From a virus (lineage: Duplodnaviria; Heunggongvirae; Uroviricota; Caudoviricetes), in IMG/VR virus record IMGVR_UViG_3300031993_004551, positions 64,001 to 116,201 of that record: DNA of 52,201 nucleotides; one strand, 5' to 3'. The position numbers and the translations under genes are program-made. The notes beneath the pieces were generated by a model. That model saw nothing but the letters and a program-made list of their open reading frames with translations, did not search any database and was not told where the DNA came from. Positions 15,087 through 46,477 of this stretch are shown one piece after another (within the stretch, counting starts at the first letter, position 1; each line of letters begins with the position of its first letter).

Positions 15087-18000
15087 TTATACCACCGTCG
15101 CCGTATTCATTGCAACCCATGTGTAGGTCTTCGTTCCGTTGCTGACAGAACACTTGAGCATGTAGTCGCCGTCCGTCGTCGGGGCGGACGGAATGTTCGA
15201 TGCTGTAATATCGCCGCCAATCTTCAAGTCGCCGTTGGCATAGAGTTCCATAGCGTTCTTACGGACAATAGTGTCGTTTGCCTTGGTATAACCTGTACCA
15301 ACAATGAATGTTGCTGGCACATCATTAACCCAATCCAACGCAGACCATGTGCCGGTAACATTATCGTGGATGCATCTGTAATAATCGTCGTTATATATAA
15401 CATACATACCACTGGAATACGTGCTAGATGTACGATATTCGTTTGCGCCATCCTTGTCGCTTGCTATAACTTTGTTATAGAATCCAAGAACGCTTTGCCA
15501 CGGGTTTGCTTCTAGGTAGGAACCAATAGCCAATGCATGGCCGCCATTTGCAATAGACTTACATCCGATTGCGGTATCGTAATTACGACCTACTCGGTTT
15601 TCTCGTCCTATAGCAACCATAAATCCGTCATCATCGTCGTATAACTGCTCTTGTGGGACCGAGAGCGGCCTATAAGAACGGTTACCGTAACCAAGCAAGA
15701 TTGAGTTATGGTGACGGGATTGGTTTCTTGCGCCTAGCAAAATGGAACTGGTTTCCGGCATATCGCCGATGAATACCGAGTCGTAAGTAGATACGTTATA
15801 CCCATCAATGGTAACGTCAATAAGCGAAATTGCGTTTGTCCACGCGCCAGACGGTAGATTTCCCAGCGTAAGTGCGGTATTAGACACTTTAACTAGTGCT
15901 GGATATGTATTGGTTTTAATTATGTTGAACGTTAGGGTAGACGCTGGTGTTGAGGTTCCGGTTTTGTCATATAGGGCAAACACCAAATTTTTACCATTTG
16001 ACAAATTGAACGGCGTTGTAAATTCAATTGACGTACGGTCGCCCTGCGCATTGAATGTAACCTCTCCGTCATATACTTTGGTAAGCGACGAAACTGGTAT
16101 CCAATCCGATTGGGTATCAAATACGGTTTTGCTCGTCTCTCCTACATATACTTCGAAAGTACGAACTGTACGACTTAGCACAGTGTAGTTGAATGTAATT
16201 CTAGTTACAGAGCCTCCCTGATTTTCTAATGCCGTAATCGGAATAATCTGTTCAGAAAATGTATATTGTATAGCCGTTCGTGTCGGTAAGTATTCCGAGG
16301 TAGCCATCGATGCCGGAACTTCCCAGTTTAGATGTTCCTTGTTGGAAGACGACTCGTTATACATGCCTAAGAGAAGTGCGTGGCTTCCATTTACTCGCTC
16401 AGTTCGGTTTCCGACGCCGTATGCGAATGCCCAACCAGATACATCATTTAGCTTTCCAAGCGCATAAGCTTCGAGGGACGTACGATTCTCGATACCAACG
16501 GCAATGTTGTAACCGCCGGAAAGTATGTTATTGGACGTACCTATTGCTGCACCTGTAGTTCCACTTAACGTTATCTTGTTACTTACGCCAATAGCGGTAC
16601 TGCCGTTATACGCTTCGTTGTTTTGACCGAAGGCTGACGAGTTGTTCTGTGCTTTGTTGGATACACCGACGGCTACGCCGGTATCACTTACGTTACTATT
16701 ATATATACCCATAGCGACCGAGTTGGCACCAATATTGGTGTTAAAAGCACCAAACACTTGGGATGCCGAATCCACTACGGCGTTATTGTGGCCAAAAATG
16801 CTAACTTTGCCAAAAGGTGACCCAGAAACGCTAGTTTTATTTGTACGATTGTTAAAGCCGGCGACAACAACTTCACCACTCGGAATTGTGTTGCTGTCAC
16901 CAAAGGAATATATATTGCTATTCGACACGTCGTCACTGCCGAGCGTATTGCGAAGACCAACGGCGAACGAATAAGCTTTTATAGTATTATTGGCACCAAC
17001 GGCATATCCGCCCTTACTATTTGCCAGATTATTATTCGCACCAAAGGCAAAACTGCCGTAGCTACTGGTGTTATTAGAGCCAAAGAGATAAGACATTAAA
17101 TTAGCCGTATTACCAGCACCGATTGCAATACTTGAATTGTTTGCGGTAGTAGTATTAGCGGCAGAAGGATTTTGAGCAATTGCGATAGAAGCCGTTGTTG
17201 CAACGGCATTGATGCCAATAGCCACACTACCGCCTGATGCCGTCGTTCCGGTTAAATGAGATACGTCCGTAAGGGAGCGTCCTATTGAAACAGAACCGCC
17301 CGATGCACTAATGCCCTGGCCTAGTGTCAATCCAAATGTGTCGGCGGTGTTGTCTTTACCGAGGTTAAACCCTTCTCCGGTAATCGTATTATTGCGACCG
17401 ATATTTACTGATAGGCTATGCGGATATAATGCAGCCGATGCAAGATTATTGCCGGTAATCGTATTATCGCGACCTAACTGGTATGCGTTTGCTGCGTTAG
17501 TGGCAGTATTGGTCTGACCTATCGAGGTTACATAGGTGTTGGAATAGTCTGTGTCGTCGTCAAATGAAGCTGAATTGGTGTGTCCAATCAAGATAGTATT
17601 GTCACGTGTAAGCGAATTGTACCAACCAATATTGACATTGTAATCACCGGTAATGTTGCTGAAACTAGACATTACTCGGTTGTACGAACCCTTAACGGTC
17701 TGGTATTGAGCCAATACGAAGTTGTAATTTGAATCTTCGGAAATCTCACCGCCTTCGCCCAATATCGCCAAGTTGTAATTGGATTTAACAGCACCAACTT
17801 TAGAGACGTTGCCAACCGAGCCGAATGAAGTAATGACAGCATTATAATCACCGTTAACATTACCGTATACGGAAAGAACCGCATTTCTCTCTCCCTTAAC
17901 GGATGCGATAGAACCGACAACTGCATTTTTAGTTCCTTTAACGATTGCGCTAGAACCGACCACTATCGTCTCGGTAGTTGTTGATGAACTGCCAATATAT

Positions 18001-38931: not shown

Positions 38932-40569
38932 TTACATTTCACTCTCGTTTTCCTCGCTAGGTTCCGGTGAAAAGTCAGAGTTTATCTTCTTTTCTTCCGT
39001 CTTGGAAGGTACAGAAGGCGGAGGCCCGTCGATAATATGCCCATCGTCACGGGCAACCATCCGGGAGTACTTCATGGTGACTATCCGACGGTTCACGAGT
39101 TCAAGGAACCGCTCAGCAGTCGGCGCACCCTCATAGTAATTCACCATGTCGCAGATGATGCCCGAAATGTATGCATGGGTAAGTCCGGACTCGAAAATCT
39201 GGTTGCATGCCTTGGTAAATTCGGCGCTGTCTGCGGAAACCCACCCGGGCTTATCAGCCTTCAGGTGGATAAAGGTCTGCTCGATAACATCAATCACATC
39301 CTCGACAGTCTTCGGGTTCTGCACATAGATGATATCATCAATCCGCTTCGGGCGATTCTTGATGGTACTATGGAGCTTCTGCGGCTCGTTGATGATGAGA
39401 ATGGTGATGCCCCTGTAGTTCGGGGAGTTCGTCTCGTCAATGAAGTTGATGAATGCGCCGGTCCTCTCGTTCTTCGTGCTGAAGTCATTTCCGTCAAAGT
39501 CGTCAAAGACAAAGAACGAACCCGGGAACATCGTAAGAATCTTGAAAACATTAATCATCCCGCGCTTGTCCGAGATAGATTCCGGAGTAATCCAGAACAC
39601 GGGCACATCCGGGAACTCCATCAGGAGTCGGTTCACGGATACCGTCTTGCCGGTACCCTGGTCGCCCTGGATAATATACCCGCGGCGGCCATGGCCGTCG
39701 AGAACCTTGCGGATAAATTCGGCCTCACTCTTCATCGTACGGATAGCCTTGCCAGAATCATCATACAAGTCAAAGTTCTTTATGTCGAAATCGATTATCT
39801 TTCTCGGCTCGGCGAACATCGAACCGTTCTTGATGCGGATGACATTCTTGGATATGTCGATACTGTCGATATAAATCCGGTAGACGAGCTTGCTCATCCC
39901 ATCGAAAATTACCGGGTCGAGCTTGGAACGCTCCATACCGAAATTCATGAACGAATAATTTTCGTCATTGGCGATATCGACACCCTCGTAGTTACAGCTA
40001 GAAATGCAGTAGCCAAGTTCAATACCCACGATTCCAGTGTGGCCACCGATAGTAACCTCGGCAACGATGTTGTATTCCTCGCCCTTGTCCCCCGTATCGG
40101 TTTCAGGAGGAAGCTGCTTTACCTTCATAAAGCGCACCCCGTAACTGGCGAGCTTTTCGGCATCCATCCCGACAAAAGCCTTGCATATACCGGATGTTAC
40201 CGGTATGTTGGAAGTCTGCAAGTCGACACCACGGCGGACATCCATATAAGCAGCAAGGGGGTCGTAAGGACTCTTCACCTCGTGACTTGCGGCGACAAAA
40301 ACATTGTTGACGATAGTATTCAACTTAACAAGCCCAAGCATCGTATCGAGGGCATCCAAGTAAGCGCCGACTATGCGGTTCTTGGTAGCCGCCCGGATGA
40401 GGCTGCCGAATGTACCGACGAAATTGCTTGCCGTGTCGACCAGCTTCGGGCCGTTCTTGCGCAATTCGCCCCAGAGAATCCGCAGCTTCTCCTTGGCTGT
40501 CCGAGACGGCCAGTTTTCCGCGTCGATTTCAATCTTGACCAACAGTTCTTCAGTCTTTTCTTTAGACAT
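38932..40569 (-). CDS. AAA+ ATPase with long N-terminal domain
   Basis: Walker A GDQGTGKT, Walker B FVFDDFD, IINEP...RPKRID. Confidence 0.8.
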   Translation of the reverse strand: MSKEKTEELLVKIEIDAENWPSRTAKEKLRILWGELRKNGPKLVDTASNFVGTFGSLIRAATKNRIVGAYLDALDTMLGLVKLNTIVNNVFVAASHEVKSPYDPLAAYMDVRRGVDLQTSNIPVTSGICKAFVGMDAEKLASYGVRFMKVKQLPPETDTGDKGEEYNIVAEVTIGGHTGIVGIELGYCISSCNYEGVDIANDENYSFMNFGMERSKLDPVIFDGMSKLVYRIYIDSIDISKNVIRIKNGSMFAEPRKIIDFDIKNFDLYDDSGKAIRTMKSEAEFIRKVLDGHGRRGYIIQGDQGTGKTVSVNRLLMEFPDVPVFWITPESISDKRGMINVFKILTMFPGSFFVFDDFDGNDFSTKNERTGAFINFIDETNSPNYRGITILIINEPQKLHSTIKNRPKRIDDIIYVQNPKTVEDVIDVIEQTFIHLKADKPGWVSADSAEFTKACNQIFESGLTHAYISGIICDMVNYYEGAPTAERFLELVNRRIVTMKYSRMVARDDGHIIDGPPPSVPSKTEEKKINSDFSPEPSEENESEM

Positions 40570-41541: not shown

Positions 41542-42592
41542 CCTTAGCCCTCCCGTACCATTCATCGATAGACTTGTTCATTTCCTCGGTCAGCGTACCC
41601 TGCGGAACCTTCCTGAGTACGTTATCGACGAAGAAAATGATTCCCGGGTCGCCATCCTCGGAATGCACTGCGGAAAGAATCAAGTCCATGGTCATCGGCA
41701 CCGAACGGTCAATATCGTATATCGTCGTATCGATATCCAGCGCGACCCGAGGAGAATACCACCACTTGAGTTCAACCTCGAGGCGTCCCATCGCGCGGTA
41801 CTTTTCCACCATTTCGTCCATAGTCGCCTTCCCGGCGATATAGGAAGCGAAATCCTCGTCCGACATCCTCCGGACACAGGCACACATCACGCGGTTCCGC
41901 ACATACACCTTGCCCTTCTTATAAGCTTCCGAGTTCACCTTCGGGTGGAACATATGGTACGCCACGGCACCAGTACACGGATTCCGGAGAATCTCCGCAC
42001 CGATGCGGCGGAACTTGAACATAAATGTATCATCCTCGGCACCCCAGCCGTCAAACGCCTCATCGAACTTGCCGACCGCATTGAAGGTATCCCATGTAAA
42101 TCCGCAGCAGAGCCCAGTCTGCCTATGGATAGTGACACCGTGGTCCTTACTGCCTCCAAACGGAGCGCCCGTCTCCACGAGCTGTTTCGTGTCGGTCTCA
42201 TCGAGGTACATCGTGTCGCCATAAGGAAACACAAGGCGTCCATCGGCAATGTTTGCCATCAGGTATTCCGCGAGTGGCCTAGTTAGATACACATCGGCAT
42301 CAAGCATAATGTACCCCGAATATCCCGGGTGACCGGTAACGGCGAGATTCATCAGGCGTGTCTTCCAGAACCGTTCATGGTCCATGTTGTCGATGATGCC
42401 GTGAAGCAACCCCGGAGTCTTATCGAGTCCGCTCTCGGCCATATATGTGCCGTCGCCTTGCTCCATTATGATGTGGTCAGCCTCGGGGAATACCTCTGCC
42501 GCGCGAGCAATACAGGCCCCCAAATTTCTCCGGCGGAACTTGTCCCCGGTATCCATAAATGCAGTAATAAGTAAAAAGTTCTTCATCGTCAT
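41513..42592 (-). CDS. GT2/GT7C-like glycosyltransferase
   Basis: FWKTRLMN, IMLDADV (DxD), GKFDEAFDGWGAEDD, YHMFHP. Confidence 0.8.
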   Translation of the reverse strand: MTMKNFLLITAFMDTGDKFRRRNLGACIARAAEVFPEADHIIMEQGDGTYMAESGLDKTPGLLHGIIDNMDHERFWKTRLMNLAVTGHPGYSGYIMLDADVYLTRPLAEYLMANIADGRLVFPYGDTMYLDETDTKQLVETGAPFGGSKDHGVTIHRQTGLCCGFTWDTFNAVGKFDEAFDGWGAEDDTFMFKFRRIGAEILRNPCTGAVAYHMFHPKVNSEAYKKGKVYVRNRVMCACVRRMSDEDFASYIAGKATMDEMVEKYRAMGRLEVELKWWYSPRVALDIDTTIYDIDRSVPMTMDLILSAVHSEDGDPGIIFFVDNVLRKVPQGTLTEEMNKSIDEWYGRAKDALLRKEHS

Positions 42593-42599
42593 ATAAACT
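42592..42599 (+). promoter_or_regulatory. TATAAACT putative late promoter of the terminase operon
   Basis: Exact motif upstream of ATG 42653. Confidence 0.7.
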
Positions 42600-42652
42600 A
42601 TTTAAAAAATGATGCGTCGGCAAGCCAGCCGTACGGTTCAAGGAGATTTTCT

Positions 42653-43465
42653 ATGTACAGAGGACTTATAGATGTGAGAGGGGCTAATGAGAACATTAAG
42701 CTAACCCCTTTCGAGAAGGCAGAATACAAGAAATGCAAGGAGAGTCTTGCATACTTCATCGAGCATTATGTGTACATAAATACTAAAGACCGCGGGCTGG
42801 AACTGTTCAAGCTTACCCCACGACAGAAAAAAGAAGTCGCCCGGATAGCCTTCCGGGAAACCGTATACGGCTCGCACATCGCGTTCCATAGCTGGTACCG
42901 TCAGGCAGGCTACAGTTCGATGGTGATGGCCTATGTCCTGTGGAAGATGATATTCACTCCAAATACGACCACGCTACTCCCCAAGGCAAGAAAATGGAAG
43001 GACGGGATACAGAACATGTATCTGTTCCGCCGGATGTACCTTGAACTCCCATACTGGCTGAAACCCGGGGTTACCCAGTGGAGCAAGAACGAGATATCAT
43101 TCGAGAACCTGTCGCACATCACCTTGCGCTCATTAAACAAGTCGTGCGACCAGACACGGGGTTTCGCCGTGAACATACTAGTACTCGACTATTTCGACGG
43201 AGCGCCCGCCAATGTAGCCAAGGGAATTATTAGCAATCTCATATACACGATGTCCCAGCAAGCACACGGCAAGGTTTTCATATCCGGTCTCGGACCGAAT
43301 GACACTACCGTATCCGGGCAGTACTGGAAAGCAAGCAAGGATTCAACCGAATGCTGGTTCTCCAGGTACAGCTGGGAAGACAACCCGAAATTCAACAAGA
43401 AATGGGCAGATGAGGAAATACTGAAAATCGGCGAGAAGCGCTTCCGCGAATACTACGTCCGGTAA
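42653..43465 (+). CDS. Degenerate large-terminase ATPase-domain paralog (pseudo-ATPase, no nuclease domain)
   Basis: Collinear with the downstream TerL (YVYINTKD, LPYWLxPGV, RGF..N.L.LD, IGExRFR); Walker A RQAGYS, Walker B LVLDY. Confidence 0.85.
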   Translation: MYRGLIDVRGANENIKLTPFEKAEYKKCKESLAYFIEHYVYINTKDRGLELFKLTPRQKKEVARIAFRETVYGSHIAFHSWYRQAGYSSMVMAYVLWKMIFTPNTTTLLPKARKWKDGIQNMYLFRRMYLELPYWLKPGVTQWSKNEISFENLSHITLRSLNKSCDQTRGFAVNILVLDYFDGAPANVAKGIISNLIYTMSQQAHGKVFISGLGPNDTTVSGQYWKASKDSTECWFSRYSWEDNPKFNKKWADEEILKIGEKRFREYYVR

Positions 43466-43477
43466 GGGGGATAGCTC

Positions 43478-46474
43478 ATGCCATTTAACGGAATATTCAA
43501 CCTGCGTGACGCAAACGAAAGCGTCGTGATGACTCCCTACAGAATTAGGGAGCTTCGTAAGTGTGCAAAGAGCCCGATTTACTTCATCAGGAACTATGTC
43601 TACATCAACACGAAAGACAACGGCATGCAGCTGATGAAGACATATCCCTTCCAGGATGCGGCAATCAAGCGCTTCCTGAAATACAGGTTCAACATCAACA
43701 AGTGGAGCCGTCAGGTCGGCAAGTCCACTGTCGTCCGAGCGTACATCCTCTGGTACGCCATGTTCCACAAGGACAAGCTGGTTGCCATGCTTGCGAACAA
43801 GCTTATGCTTGCCAAGGAACAGCTGCAGCTTCTCCGTGAATCCTATGTCGCGCTCCCGTACTGGCTCCAGCCGGGTGTCAAGCTGTGGAACAAGATGAGC
43901 ATCCAGTTCTCGAACGGGTGCCGAATAATGGTCGCCGCGAGTTCCCCGGACGGTATCCGCGGGTTCTCTCCGAACCTCCTGTACCTTGACGAATTTGCGT
44001 TCTTGCGCCCGGGCATGGCCGACGAGTTCATGGCTTCCGTGATGCCGACCATTTCTTCAGGTAAGACAACCCGTATCATCATTACGAGTTGTGTCGTAAA
44101 AGATACCATGGTGTTTACACCGGACGGTATCCGGACAGTCGGCGACTTCATTATAGATGATGGCAGGGTTCTCGGCTATGAAGTACCCGAATACCAAGTA
44201 TTGGGTCGTTATGGGATGAACCGCGGGCATATCATGCACAATGATGGTGACGCCAAAGAAACGCACATAGTAAGAACCAGGTACAGCGAAGTAGAAACTT
44301 CGTTGATGCACAAGTTCTGGACTTGCCGAAACGGCGAATACAAAATTCGTCGAGCCCACGAGCTTCAGGTAGGCGACTATGTTATGGTAAAATATGGGAT
44401 GAACTGCTGGGGCAATGACCGCATTGACTTTGACGATAGCAACGATAAACGGCTAAAACATCATATAGGCAAACTCGACTATATAACACCGGATTGGGCA
44501 TATTTCTTTGGACTATACATTGCCGACGGAAATGCTCGTTATAGTCCCGGTAATCTTAGCTATATCGATATAACATGTGGCGACGATTTATCAGATACAT
44601 TTAACCATCTTGGGTTAAAATATCAATGCTATGATGGGTTACATTACCGTATTAACGCAAAAACGGTAGTTAGCCTTCTTATGCATGTCGGATTCGATAT
44701 TTATCGACATGCCCCACAAAAAATAATACCACCAAGACTAATGCGATTATCACGCGAATGTACTGCCGCTATGATTCAAGGTATGTTCGATGGCGACGGT
44801 TCCGCTCCACACGGTAGACGCCGGGTTACCTATGTGAGCACATCGGAACGACTTATCGACCAGCTTAGAATGCTTCTCATTAATTTTGGAATACTAAGTA
44901 GCAAATATGAACATATTTCTAAACCGACTAAGAGAGTAACGGTTACTAGCAAATCATGGGTCGTCGAAATCGCACAAGCACCAATGGTAGATAAATTCTT
45001 GTGCAACATTGGATTCCGTTTTGCTCGAAAACAACAAAGTGCGAATAGTCAACCTAGACGCAAGGAACGGGCTAGTCGTTATGACTACATTCCGTTTGCC
45101 GCCCCTGAAATTAGACGGCTTAAAAAAGAAAAGGTACTTACTAATAATGAATTTAAGCTCACCGGCGGCATTTGTGATAAACATGACATTCATCTTAATC
45201 GGAAGCTTATTCTTGAAATAAAATCTAAGCTTCCAGAAGACATTTGGGCTAAATACGATGTATTCAAGAATGCCGAACCCGATGCAGTTTGGACACCGAT
45301 TACCAGCATCGATTCTGGTTTTAACAAAGTATATGATTTCTCGCTAAACGATGATAATTATGGCGGTAAAGAATGGTCACATTCTGTTGTCCACAATGCG
45401 TTAGTTTGTTCTCAAACTCCCAATGGGTTAAATCATTTTTATCGCATGTGGGAGGACGGCGTTGACGAAGACAAGGCTACGCCGCACGAACTGCAGGCAA
45501 AGTATGTCCGCTCGGTGGTCCTATGGAACGAAGTCCCAGGCCGTGAACCACAGTGGGGTATCGATGAAGAAGCCCGTATCGGCGAACAAAGGTTCCGCCA
45601 GGAATATATGTGCGAGTTCGTCGGCTCTGCAACCACGCTTATCGACTATAAGTGCCTCGAGCATCTCCACCCGGACAGGCCATTGCCGGTCCCGGGCGTA
45701 CCGAAGCAATATTCCCTCCGCCTCTTTGACATCCCCCTTCCCAAGCAGATGCTTGAGAAAGAGGACTGGACCTATGTCGCTGCACTCGATACCGGCTTCG
45801 GTATGCGACAGGACTACCATGTCCTCCAAATTTTGCTCGCCAAGTCTTCAATCCGCGCAGAGCAGGTGCTTGTACTTTCCTCCAACGAGGTTACCGTGGA
45901 AGACTTCTGCAGTATGGCGGCAAGCATCCTGAAGTTGTACGGGAACCCGCCGCTCACAATCGAATACAACGGCGGTTCCGGCATGACTGCACACAAGACG
46001 ATGTTCGAGAAGCTCGGATACGACAACCTCATCAACTACGACCAGTACTTCCGCGGTATCTACTCGACCAACCCAATCAAGACCACGGCAGTCATGCTCC
46101 TCAAGCTATATGTTCAGCGCGGATACCTTAAGCTGAAGGATGAAACTACCATCAACGAGCTGATGAGCTTCACGAAATTGAACCAGTTTACCTGGGGAGG
46201 CGCCGGTGGAAACCACGACGACCATGTTACCAGCCTGTACTGGGCGGTATACTTTATGGAATCCAACTGGTTCCCGGGCAAGCACGAGGATATCCAGTTC
46301 CTTGACGCGCTCGAGATTACCTTCGCCGGTGGAGCTTTGGGCGAACAGATGAGGACCGCGCTAATTACCGGCGCGGACCCGGTGGCTATCAGGGAACAGA
46401 AGGCGCTCGCCGACCTCGAAGCAAGACAGCCACACGGCGCGATGGCACCTCTGCCGTCAGCGACGCCACTATAA
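43478..46474 (+). CDS. terL: Terminase large subunit (T4 gp17-like), intein-containing
   Basis: SRQVGKS Walker A, LYLDEFAF Walker B, TS|TPNG coupling motif, RFRQEY, nuclease ALDTGFG...DY and HDDHV. Confidence 0.95.
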   Translation: MPFNGIFNLRDANESVVMTPYRIRELRKCAKSPIYFIRNYVYINTKDNGMQLMKTYPFQDAAIKRFLKYRFNINKWSRQVGKSTVVRAYILWYAMFHKDKLVAMLANKLMLAKEQLQLLRESYVALPYWLQPGVKLWNKMSIQFSNGCRIMVAASSPDGIRGFSPNLLYLDEFAFLRPGMADEFMASVMPTISSGKTTRIIITSCVVKDTMVFTPDGIRTVGDFIIDDGRVLGYEVPEYQVLGRYGMNRGHIMHNDGDAKETHIVRTRYSEVETSLMHKFWTCRNGEYKIRRAHELQVGDYVMVKYGMNCWGNDRIDFDDSNDKRLKHHIGKLDYITPDWAYFFGLYIADGNARYSPGNLSYIDITCGDDLSDTFNHLGLKYQCYDGLHYRINAKTVVSLLMHVGFDIYRHAPQKIIPPRLMRLSRECTAAMIQGMFDGDGSAPHGRRRVTYVSTSERLIDQLRMLLINFGILSSKYEHISKPTKRVTVTSKSWVVEIAQAPMVDKFLCNIGFRFARKQQSANSQPRRKERASRYDYIPFAAPEIRRLKKEKVLTNNEFKLTGGICDKHDIHLNRKLILEIKSKLPEDIWAKYDVFKNAEPDAVWTPITSIDSGFNKVYDFSLNDDNYGGKEWSHSVVHNALVCSQTPNGLNHFYRMWEDGVDEDKATPHELQAKYVRSVVLWNEVPGREPQWGIDEEARIGEQRFRQEYMCEFVGSATTLIDYKCLEHLHPDRPLPVPGVPKQYSLRLFDIPLPKQMLEKEDWTYVAALDTGFGMRQDYHVLQILLAKSSIRAEQVLVLSSNEVTVEDFCSMAASILKLYGNPPLTIEYNGGSGMTAHKTMFEKLGYDNLINYDQYFRGIYSTNPIKTTAVMLLKLYVQRGYLKLKDETTINELMSFTKLNQFTWGGAGGNHDDHVTSLYWAVYFMESNWFPGKHEDIQFLDALEITFAGGALGEQMRTALITGADPVAIREQKALADLEARQPHGAMAPLPSATPL
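44090..45415 (+). mobile_element. Intein (442 aa) with dodecapeptide LAGLIDADG homing endonuclease
   Basis: Begins CVVKDTMV, has HKF block B, LAGLIDADG motifs YFFGLYIADG and MIQGMFDGDG, VYDFSL block F, ends ALVCSQ before Thr; removing it restores IIITS-TPNG. Confidence 0.92.
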
Positions 46475-46477
46475 ACT
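46470..46477 (+). promoter_or_regulatory. TATAAACT putative late promoter
   Basis: Exact motif overlapping the terL stop, upstream of ATG 46510. Confidence 0.7.

Follow-up and report, generated by a model that had tools for sequence, protein, structure and literature searches.

A predicted catalytically dead copy of the terminase ATPase domain encoded directly upstream of terL in a putative T4-like jumbo phage

This study concerns a stretch of viral DNA of 52,201 nucleotides (the window; Caudoviricetes) and a 270-amino acid (aa) open reading frame (ORF) in it, which lies directly upstream of the large terminase gene terL and which we call pseudo-TerL (P0001). Judged by its sequence and its predicted structure, pseudo-TerL is a complete but catalytically dead copy of a gp17-type terminase ATPase domain, and on its residues it cannot be a packaging ATPase or a nuclease. 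Sequence comparison places it in an old family, within a clade of gut and rumen jumbo T4-like phages. We tentatively favour the reading that pseudo-TerL is a non-catalytic, late-expressed mimic of TerL that acts in packaging by binding; its partner and its link with packaging are what we infer.

The window makes up the final 52 kb of an IMG/VR record of 116 kb (IMGVR_UViG_3300031993_004551). Because CheckV estimates this record to be 31% complete, the source genome should have ~350 kb or more, which points to a jumbo phage. By megablast, the locus had no match among GenBank phages.

Terminase motors are viewed as homo-oligomers of one ATPase-nuclease subunit plus the small terminase (TerS), and TerL is a major trigger of Avs2/Avs3/Upx immunity. 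Recurring intact, catalytically dead ATPase-domain copies beside terL in large T4-related phages, such as the pseudo-TerL family and the phage proteins CBB_274 and 121Q gp3, suggest an unrecognised accessory layer of packaging control or defence evasion. What such mimics bind would matter for the mechanics of packaging as well as for the conflict between phage and host, because TerL triggers this immunity and the T4 protein Vs.8 is a second trigger. The pseudo-TerL family gives a clean handle for tests, with its sharp signature, its several paralogs per genome, its presence or absence among close relatives and its late operon with terL.

Results

Pseudo-TerL resembles the ATPase domain of the adjacent TerL

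By BLASTP, pseudo-TerL aligned with the adjacent TerL over residues 2–220 with 35% identity (E 9e-39). The alignment picked up again at residues 241–269, opposite residues 683–711 of TerL. The TerL ORF contains an intein, and its residue 711 becomes residue 269 after splicing; pseudo-TerL ends at the boundary between the ATPase and nuclease domains and has no C-terminal RNase H-like nuclease domain. An earlier note, made from the letters of the DNA alone, had described the ORF as a copy of the TerL ATPase domain that stops at this boundary, and the alignment together with the confident fold given below bears this out.

The motifs quoted in the earlier note were all found in the sequence, as were the Walker A and Walker B substitutions and the retained P-loop Arg. 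YVYINTKD is identical in the two proteins. LPYWLKPGV, RGFAVNILVLD and IGEKRFR of pseudo-TerL correspond to LPYWLQPGV, RGFSPNLLYLD and IGEQRFR of TerL. At the catalytic motifs, pseudo-TerL has RQAGYS for RQVGKS, LDY for LDE and ISGLG for ITS-TPNG, with the P-loop Arg-Gln retained. The change of the coupling motif from TST to SGL had also been pointed out. SGL is indeed present in pseudo-TerL, but the TST of TerL arises only after splicing of the 442-aa intein. Direct reading of the DNA agreed with the remaining description of the locus, namely an intact ORF with a promoter motif upstream and an end 12 nt before terL (Table 1).

Pfam assigned no family to pseudo-TerL at E ≤ 0.1, including Terminase_6N and PF11053, and several other members of its family reached the gathering score of Terminase_6N. 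Pseudo-TerL matched PHROG 5989 (“terminase large subunit”) with E 9e-33 and T4 gp17 with E 3e-7 by phmmer. The AlphaFold2 model, built from a 46-sequence alignment, had a predicted local distance difference test score (pLDDT) of 92.3. As judged from this model and Foldseek, the fold is that of a RecA-like ATPase domain with gp17 N-subdomains I and II. The best matches in the Protein Data Bank (PDB) were the T4 gp17 ATPase domain structures 2O0J and 2O0H (E 5e-16, TMq 0.80).

Compared with T4 gp17 (Terminase_6N; 2O0H/2O0J, 3CPE), pseudo-TerL has the same fold over both N-subdomains and clear sequence homology. It keeps the P-loop Arg-Gln-x-Gly, the Walker B Asp and many core residues. Unlike T4 gp17, it lacks the Walker A Lys, the catalytic Glu, the S/T coupling motif and the nuclease domain, and it stands in a clade apart from all TerLs sampled.

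Pseudo-TerL belongs to an old family with a changed active site

We searched 1.84 billion cluster representatives exhaustively with HMMER. Among the top matches were short proteins of 262–459 aa, all of which have WYRQ[AS]G[YF][ST] where TerLs have RQxGK[ST]. A second search added further members, some with His at the position of the Walker A Lys. The family signature is WYRQxG[Y/F/H][S/T]; pseudo-TerL carries it and falls within the clade.

In a maximum-likelihood tree of the ATPase domain, 14 family members formed one clade, with a support of 99 in the Shimodaira-Hasegawa-like approximate likelihood ratio test (SH-aLRT), and stood apart from 124 TerLs, among them the cognate TerL clade. When the long form from the same genome was added, 12 members again formed one clade with support of 99. 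Pseudo-TerL was taken in the earlier note for a simple paralog of the adjacent terL. This view did not hold, as the protein belongs to an old, separate clade of many members and has a second copy in the same genome. We also ran the approximately unbiased (AU) test on a 40-row set. Because joining the family to the phage group's own TerL lineage was not rejected (p-AU 0.57), the test leaves room for, but does not demonstrate, an origin in which the TerL of the group was duplicated early.

Column statistics show what the family has lost. The missing TerL-typical residues are the Walker A Lys (present in 95% of the 124 TerLs), the Walker B Glu (96%) and the coupling Ser (90%), together with the equivalents of Lys207 and Arg247. 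The position before the conserved Gln is aromatic in most TerLs and is Arg in 90% of family members. W81, Y82, R83, Q84 and G86 are invariant in the family, and position 87 is Y, F or H. The new invariant or near-invariant positions are W81, Y82, P56, E61 and S237. Conservation within the family is highest at the former active site, and yet its composition differs from that in TerLs. We therefore read the nucleotide pocket as rebuilt, a site that was re-used rather than one in decay.

A different kind of dead terminase derivative also appeared in the search of representatives. P0021 (612 aa) has two tandem TerL-ATPase-like domains, with RQTGIS and RETGLT, and both lack the Walker A Lys and the catalytic Glu.

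Pseudo-TerL is kept intact in relatives

Among 5.8 billion proteins searched, five were homologous to pseudo-TerL, with identities of 65–90%. All five retain RQAGYS, LD[YW]F (LDW in two) and SG[LVF]G, and none has a frameshift or stop. The gene order is uniform across the contigs of the relatives (L004, L005, L006 and L010): a glycosyltransferase gene on the minus strand, pseudo-TerL, TerL, a 383-aa gene and a 122-aa gene.

We calculated pairwise ratios of nonsynonymous to synonymous substitution rates (dN/dS) by the Nei-Gojobori method (NG86). The ratio for pseudo-TerL was 0.14–0.40, with dS up to 1.9. For the neighbours it was 0.03–0.17 (TerL exteins), 0.07–0.15 (glycosyltransferase), 0.11–0.24 (383-aa gene) and 0–0.10 (122-aa gene). 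The proportion of nonsynonymous differences in pseudo-TerL was below that of synonymous differences (pN < pS) in 10 of 10 pairs, with Fisher p from 7e-4 to 9e-30. Selection on pseudo-TerL is purifying and looser than on TerL.

The comparison of related phages that had been suggested beforehand thus found the pair kept in five relatives, with no frameshift and with dN/dS of 0.14–0.40. The idea of a maintained pseudo-ATPase agrees with these values, with the gp17-type fold and with the conservation of the replacement residues.

A late-type promoter motif precedes pseudo-TerL

The window contains 14 exact copies of TATAAACT. The degenerate form TATAAAYW occurs 16 times, compared with 8.1 expected, and 14 of the 16 are TATAAACT. 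In 12 of the 14 cases, a downstream ATG within 90 nt opens an ORF of at least 50 aa; two of the genes behind these copies are tail-fibre-like. Plus-strand sites include 2144, 7449, 19961, 31329, 42592 and 46470, and minus-strand sites include 2121, 10870, 14174, 19938, 25809, 28165 and 50322. T4 late promoters have the motif TATAAATA, which TATAAACT resembles. From its sequence and placement, TATAAACT is probably the late promoter of this phage group.

The extended motif CATATAAACTATTTAAAAA upstream of pseudo-TerL is kept in four of the five relatives, and L004 has one change (ACATAAACT). Because the AAGGAG and the ATG of pseudo-TerL are conserved or nearly so in all five, the GTG starts called for the gene in three records are mis-calls. 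The same TATAAACT also stands 26 nt before the ATG of the long form in the same genome (P0008) and upstream of P0014 and P0030, two short forms described below. In relatives without the short paralog, it lies directly ahead of terL.

Pseudo-TerL therefore sits between terL and a late-type promoter motif, and no TATAAACT was found between pseudo-TerL and terL. With this arrangement, pseudo-TerL should be made together with TerL.

Short and long forms have different distributions

A second family member is encoded in the same genome, ~64 kb before the window (P0008, 445 aa; G000:C1:318-1655, minus strand; locus L003). Its Walker A segment is RQSGYT, and it has an intact FIDEF. The C-terminal domain of 180 aa is beta-rich and has no recognisable relatives (AlphaFold2 pLDDT 81). 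Foldseek matched the P0008 model to PDB entries over the N-domain only. A degenerate nuclease domain in this C-terminus was considered and is unsupported, with an hhalign probability of 0.3% against the TerL alignment. Atlas feature matches of the same region to nuclease families scored below 0.9 and are leads only.

Two other lineages also have a short form next to terL. In one of them, 3 nt separate P0014 (269 aa) from the terL that follows, whose product shares 69% identity with the window-clade TerL. In the other, P0030 (262 aa) precedes terL by 12 nt; the contig covers just the N-terminal 53 aa of this TerL, and these are 87% identical. P0014 and P0030 are only ~30% identical to pseudo-TerL and to each other.

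We checked the distribution in five IMG/VR relatives of 171–355 kb, including two with a completeness of at least 93%. Orthologues and paralogous long forms were spread across all five. Each has one long form, so that a long form is present in 6 of the 6 records examined. In the three relatives in which TerL was located (G001, G002 and G005), terL comes directly after the divergently oriented glycosyltransferase gene, and the short paralog is absent. The short TerL-adjacent form is an accessory, patchy element.

In one of these relatives (G001, IMGVR_UViG_3300037455_000372; loci L034 and L037), the long form is 95% identical to that of the window genome, with 66% for TerL and 42% for the upstream glycosyltransferase. 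From these identities, jumbo phages that are otherwise close seem to exchange the terL cassette, with or without the paralog. A 351-aa member (P0011) was seen on two contigs of 119 and 110 kb (L014 and L015) from samples shared with the window clade. Its short C-terminal part has weak matches to DUF551 and to PHROGs of unknown function. P0011 could represent a third paralog in the same phage, or else derive from a co-occurring relative.

Related proteins in known phages

A “truncated large terminase” was reported in Rak2-like jumbo phages (CBB_274 and 121Q gp3) and called unusual by Buttimer et al. 2017 (PMC5259590). As with pseudo-TerL, a short TerL-ATPase-like ORF immediately precedes terL in these T4-related jumbo phages. 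The 121Q gp3 protein has 227 aa, overlaps the terL start and has RIGTT instead of GK[ST], so that it likewise lacks the Walker A Lys. Its similarity to pseudo-TerL is marginal (E 0.006) and covers the stretch from the P-loop to Walker B. The CBB protein matches the pseudo-TerL model structurally with E 6.7e-12. Unlike pseudo-TerL, the Rak2-like proteins belong to PHROG 27915, have 227–235 aa and have no WYRQxGY signature.

Sinorhizobium phage phiM12, of the T4 superfamily, also has a truncated TerL-like ORF (gp17.2) immediately upstream of gp17. On its other side is a normal gp16 TerS, and in the tree gp17.2 groups outside the pseudo-TerL clade. In contrast to pseudo-TerL, gp17.2 (~196 aa) still has GKT in Walker A and DE in Walker B.

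The T4 protein Vs.8 (phrog_1488) is another stand-alone TerL-ATPase-like protein of T4-like phages. Unlike pseudo-TerL, it keeps Walker A and B and is encoded away from terL. No direct sequence relation between the two was detectable (hhalign probability against the family 0.5%; no relevant BLASTP match). Evans et al. 2026 reported that EcAvs2 recognises the ATPase domain of TerL by means of a bridging ATP, and that Vs.8 is toxic with EcAvs2 and so acts as a trigger (PMC13601566). By analogy, the Vs.8 case shows that sensors do see such mimics, but as triggers.

In the literature, we found no paper on the WYRQxG[YFH] family or its function, and nothing specific on pseudo-ATPase or paralogous terminases. 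Pseudo-TerL is a well-defined new form, whereas truncated terminases were already noticed in large phages but never explained.

Possible functions of pseudo-TerL

If pseudo-TerL acts in packaging, it would work by binding and not by hydrolysis. It would be transcribed late from the TATAAACT promoter of terL and translated just ahead of TerL. As an accessory TerL look-alike, it would modulate DNA packaging, for example by taking up the sites at which TerL meets another TerL, the portal or DNA. Alternatively, it would keep TerL inactive until the prohead is ready. We favour a packaging mimic because of the full gp17 ATPase fold, the conserved rebuilt pocket, the expected late co-expression and the adjacency to terL in three lineages.

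Several observations weigh against this. The long forms (351–475 aa) are encoded at a distance from terL, and their gene neighbours have no known function. G001, G002 and G005 have no short TerL-adjacent form. Because their TerLs are 66–83% identical to that of the window clade, the short form is dispensable for the motor as such, and an obligatory motor subunit for the group is ruled out. The nonsynonymous divergence of pseudo-TerL is 2–10 times that of TerL (median ~5), which would fit a conflict-related role too.

Such a role, as an immune-related mimic, is nevertheless unlikely. Pseudo-TerL would bind or divert the sensors of the TerL ATPase fold (Avs1-3, Upx), or would be a TerL-like accessory protein that, having lost ATP binding, escapes sensors of the ATP-bound site. 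Consistent with this are its faster evolution than TerL and the neighbours, the patchy distribution with lineages only ~30% identical, and the expected co-expression with TerL. EcAvs2 reads an ATP bridged to the ATP of the terminase, and T4 Vs.8 and Ksap1/2, which are stand-alone TerL-ATPase-like proteins, enter the same pocket (PMC13601566). The pseudo-TerL model also matches the PhiV-1 TerL as bound by Avs3 (8DGC; Foldseek against PDB). However, the sole tested analogue, T4 Vs.8, activates EcAvs2 and gives no block (PMC13601566). Without ATP and a nuclease domain, a decoy would lack a large part of the interface with Avs2/Avs3, and anti-defence genes are usually early, whereas pseudo-TerL is under a late-type promoter motif. 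Losing ATP binding might just as well help such a protein to escape detection by sensors.

Binding of a new ligand, with no relation to packaging, is also an outside prospect. The aromatic and Arg-rich pocket would hold a nucleotide, perhaps a signalling one, or something else, and adjacency to terL would reflect origin only. The most conserved part of the family is the former active site with its new W81, Y82, Y/F/H87, R57 and E61. Genomes carry several paralogs, and extra C-terminal domains of unknown fold occur in the long forms. No ligand was predicted by any tool used, however, and the late-type promoter motif and TerL adjacency in three lineages favour a packaging link.

The whole family might, though this is rather improbable, consist of dedicated TerL look-alikes for conflict over terminase sensing. 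With their ATP binding lost, they would be true decoys that engage Avs1-3/Upx or shield nascent TerL, without forming an ATP-bridged, oligomerisation-competent complex, and their fast-diverging paralogs would come from an arms race.

We give still less credence to pseudo-TerL as a TerS replacement that does the DNA recognition and TerL stimulation of the small terminase. It occupies the position of T4 gene 16, directly upstream of terL in the same operon, and the window-clade protein is strongly basic (pI 9.3–9.7). No match to PF11053 (T4 gp16) was found in six records (the available part of the window genome and five relatives, two of them at least 93% complete) by a search that is insensitive. 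TerS proteins are too divergent to be excluded with one Pfam model. The other short members are acidic or neutral, so that net charge is an inconsistent clue to DNA binding, and the fold is a monomeric RecA-like ATPase domain and not a helical ring former of the TerS type. In addition, phiM12 has a normal gp16 beside its truncated gp17.2, and relatives package with TerL alone at the terL locus. Sensor decoy and TerS replacement had both been offered in the earlier note as functions, and both are unsupported.

Finally, a decaying or functionless partial terL duplicate is very improbable: the lost catalytic residues, the absent nuclease domain and the looser constraint would fit it, but five relatives, with dS of up to 1.9, have an unbroken frame, pN is below pS with p down to 9e-30, and the family is monophyletic with a confident fold and with invariant derived residues across members only 25–30% identical.

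Features of the locus and the adjacent terL

The coordinates of the features are collected in Table 1. The spacer before terL is G-rich and contains GGGGGA, which is Shine-Dalgarno-like.

Table 1. Coordinates in the window of pseudo-TerL, terL and their sequence features.
Feature	Position	Strand	Evidence
TATAAACT late-type promoter motif upstream of the pseudo-TerL/TerL operon	42592..42599	+	sequence reading
AAGGAG ribosome-binding site, 7 nt before the pseudo-TerL ATG	42640..42645	+	sequence reading
Pseudo-TerL (P0001), predicted 270-aa stand-alone gp17-type ATPase-domain protein	42653..43465	+	ORF intact, BLASTP, PHROG, AlphaFold2, Foldseek
Remodelled Walker A, residues 83–88 RQAGYS (Lys to Tyr), after family-invariant W81-Y82	42899..42916	+	
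Degenerate Walker B, residues 177–181 VLDYF (catalytic Glu to Tyr; Trp in two relatives)	43181..43195	+	
Coupling-motif position, residues 210–214 ISGLG instead of ITSTP	43280..43294	+	
12-nt spacer GGGGGATAGCTC from pseudo-TerL stop to terL ATG; no promoter motif inside	43466..43477	+	
TerL N-extein, residues 1–204, intact Walker A RQVGKS and Walker B LDE	43478..44089	+	
442-aa LAGLIDADG intein (TerL residues 205–646) in the coupling motif ITS|TPNG	44090..45415	+	Pfam, orthologue comparison
TerL C-extein: remaining ATPase domain and RNase H-like nuclease domain	45416..46474	+	
Next TATAAACT, which overlaps the stop codon of terL and precedes the conserved 383-aa gene	46470..46477	+	

The TerL ORF (43478–46474, plus strand) has 998 aa. 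Intein-free TerL orthologues have 556 aa and the coupling motif IIITSTPNG. The intein matched Pfam LAGLIDADG_3 with E 1.9e-15, and its match to Intein_splicing was weak (24.5 bits, under the family cut-off of 35.8 bits). It is polymorphic, being present in the window, L004 and L010 and absent from L005 and L006/7. Because the intein is found in three of these genomes and is missing from the others, pseudo-TerL is not tied to it. An origin of pseudo-TerL as a by-product of the homing endonuclease or intein was therefore rejected, since the gene stands beside intein-bearing and intein-free terL alike.

The first residue of the window intein is Cys, its end is ...VCSQ and the +1 residue is Thr; the L010 intein ends with ...VCQN. 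The window copy thus has a terminal Gln where Asn is usual, and the usual penultimate His is in neither copy.

Two further genes were seen near terL. A conserved 545-aa protein with the P-loop GDQGTGKT and no informative family match is encoded at 38932–40569 of the window (minus strand), two genes upstream of the glycosyltransferase gene, and is syntenic in all relatives. In L006 (ERZ28633737 scaffold_35), an IS605 OrfB / Cas12f-like TnpB gene lies near the terL region, at 16694–16813 and beyond.

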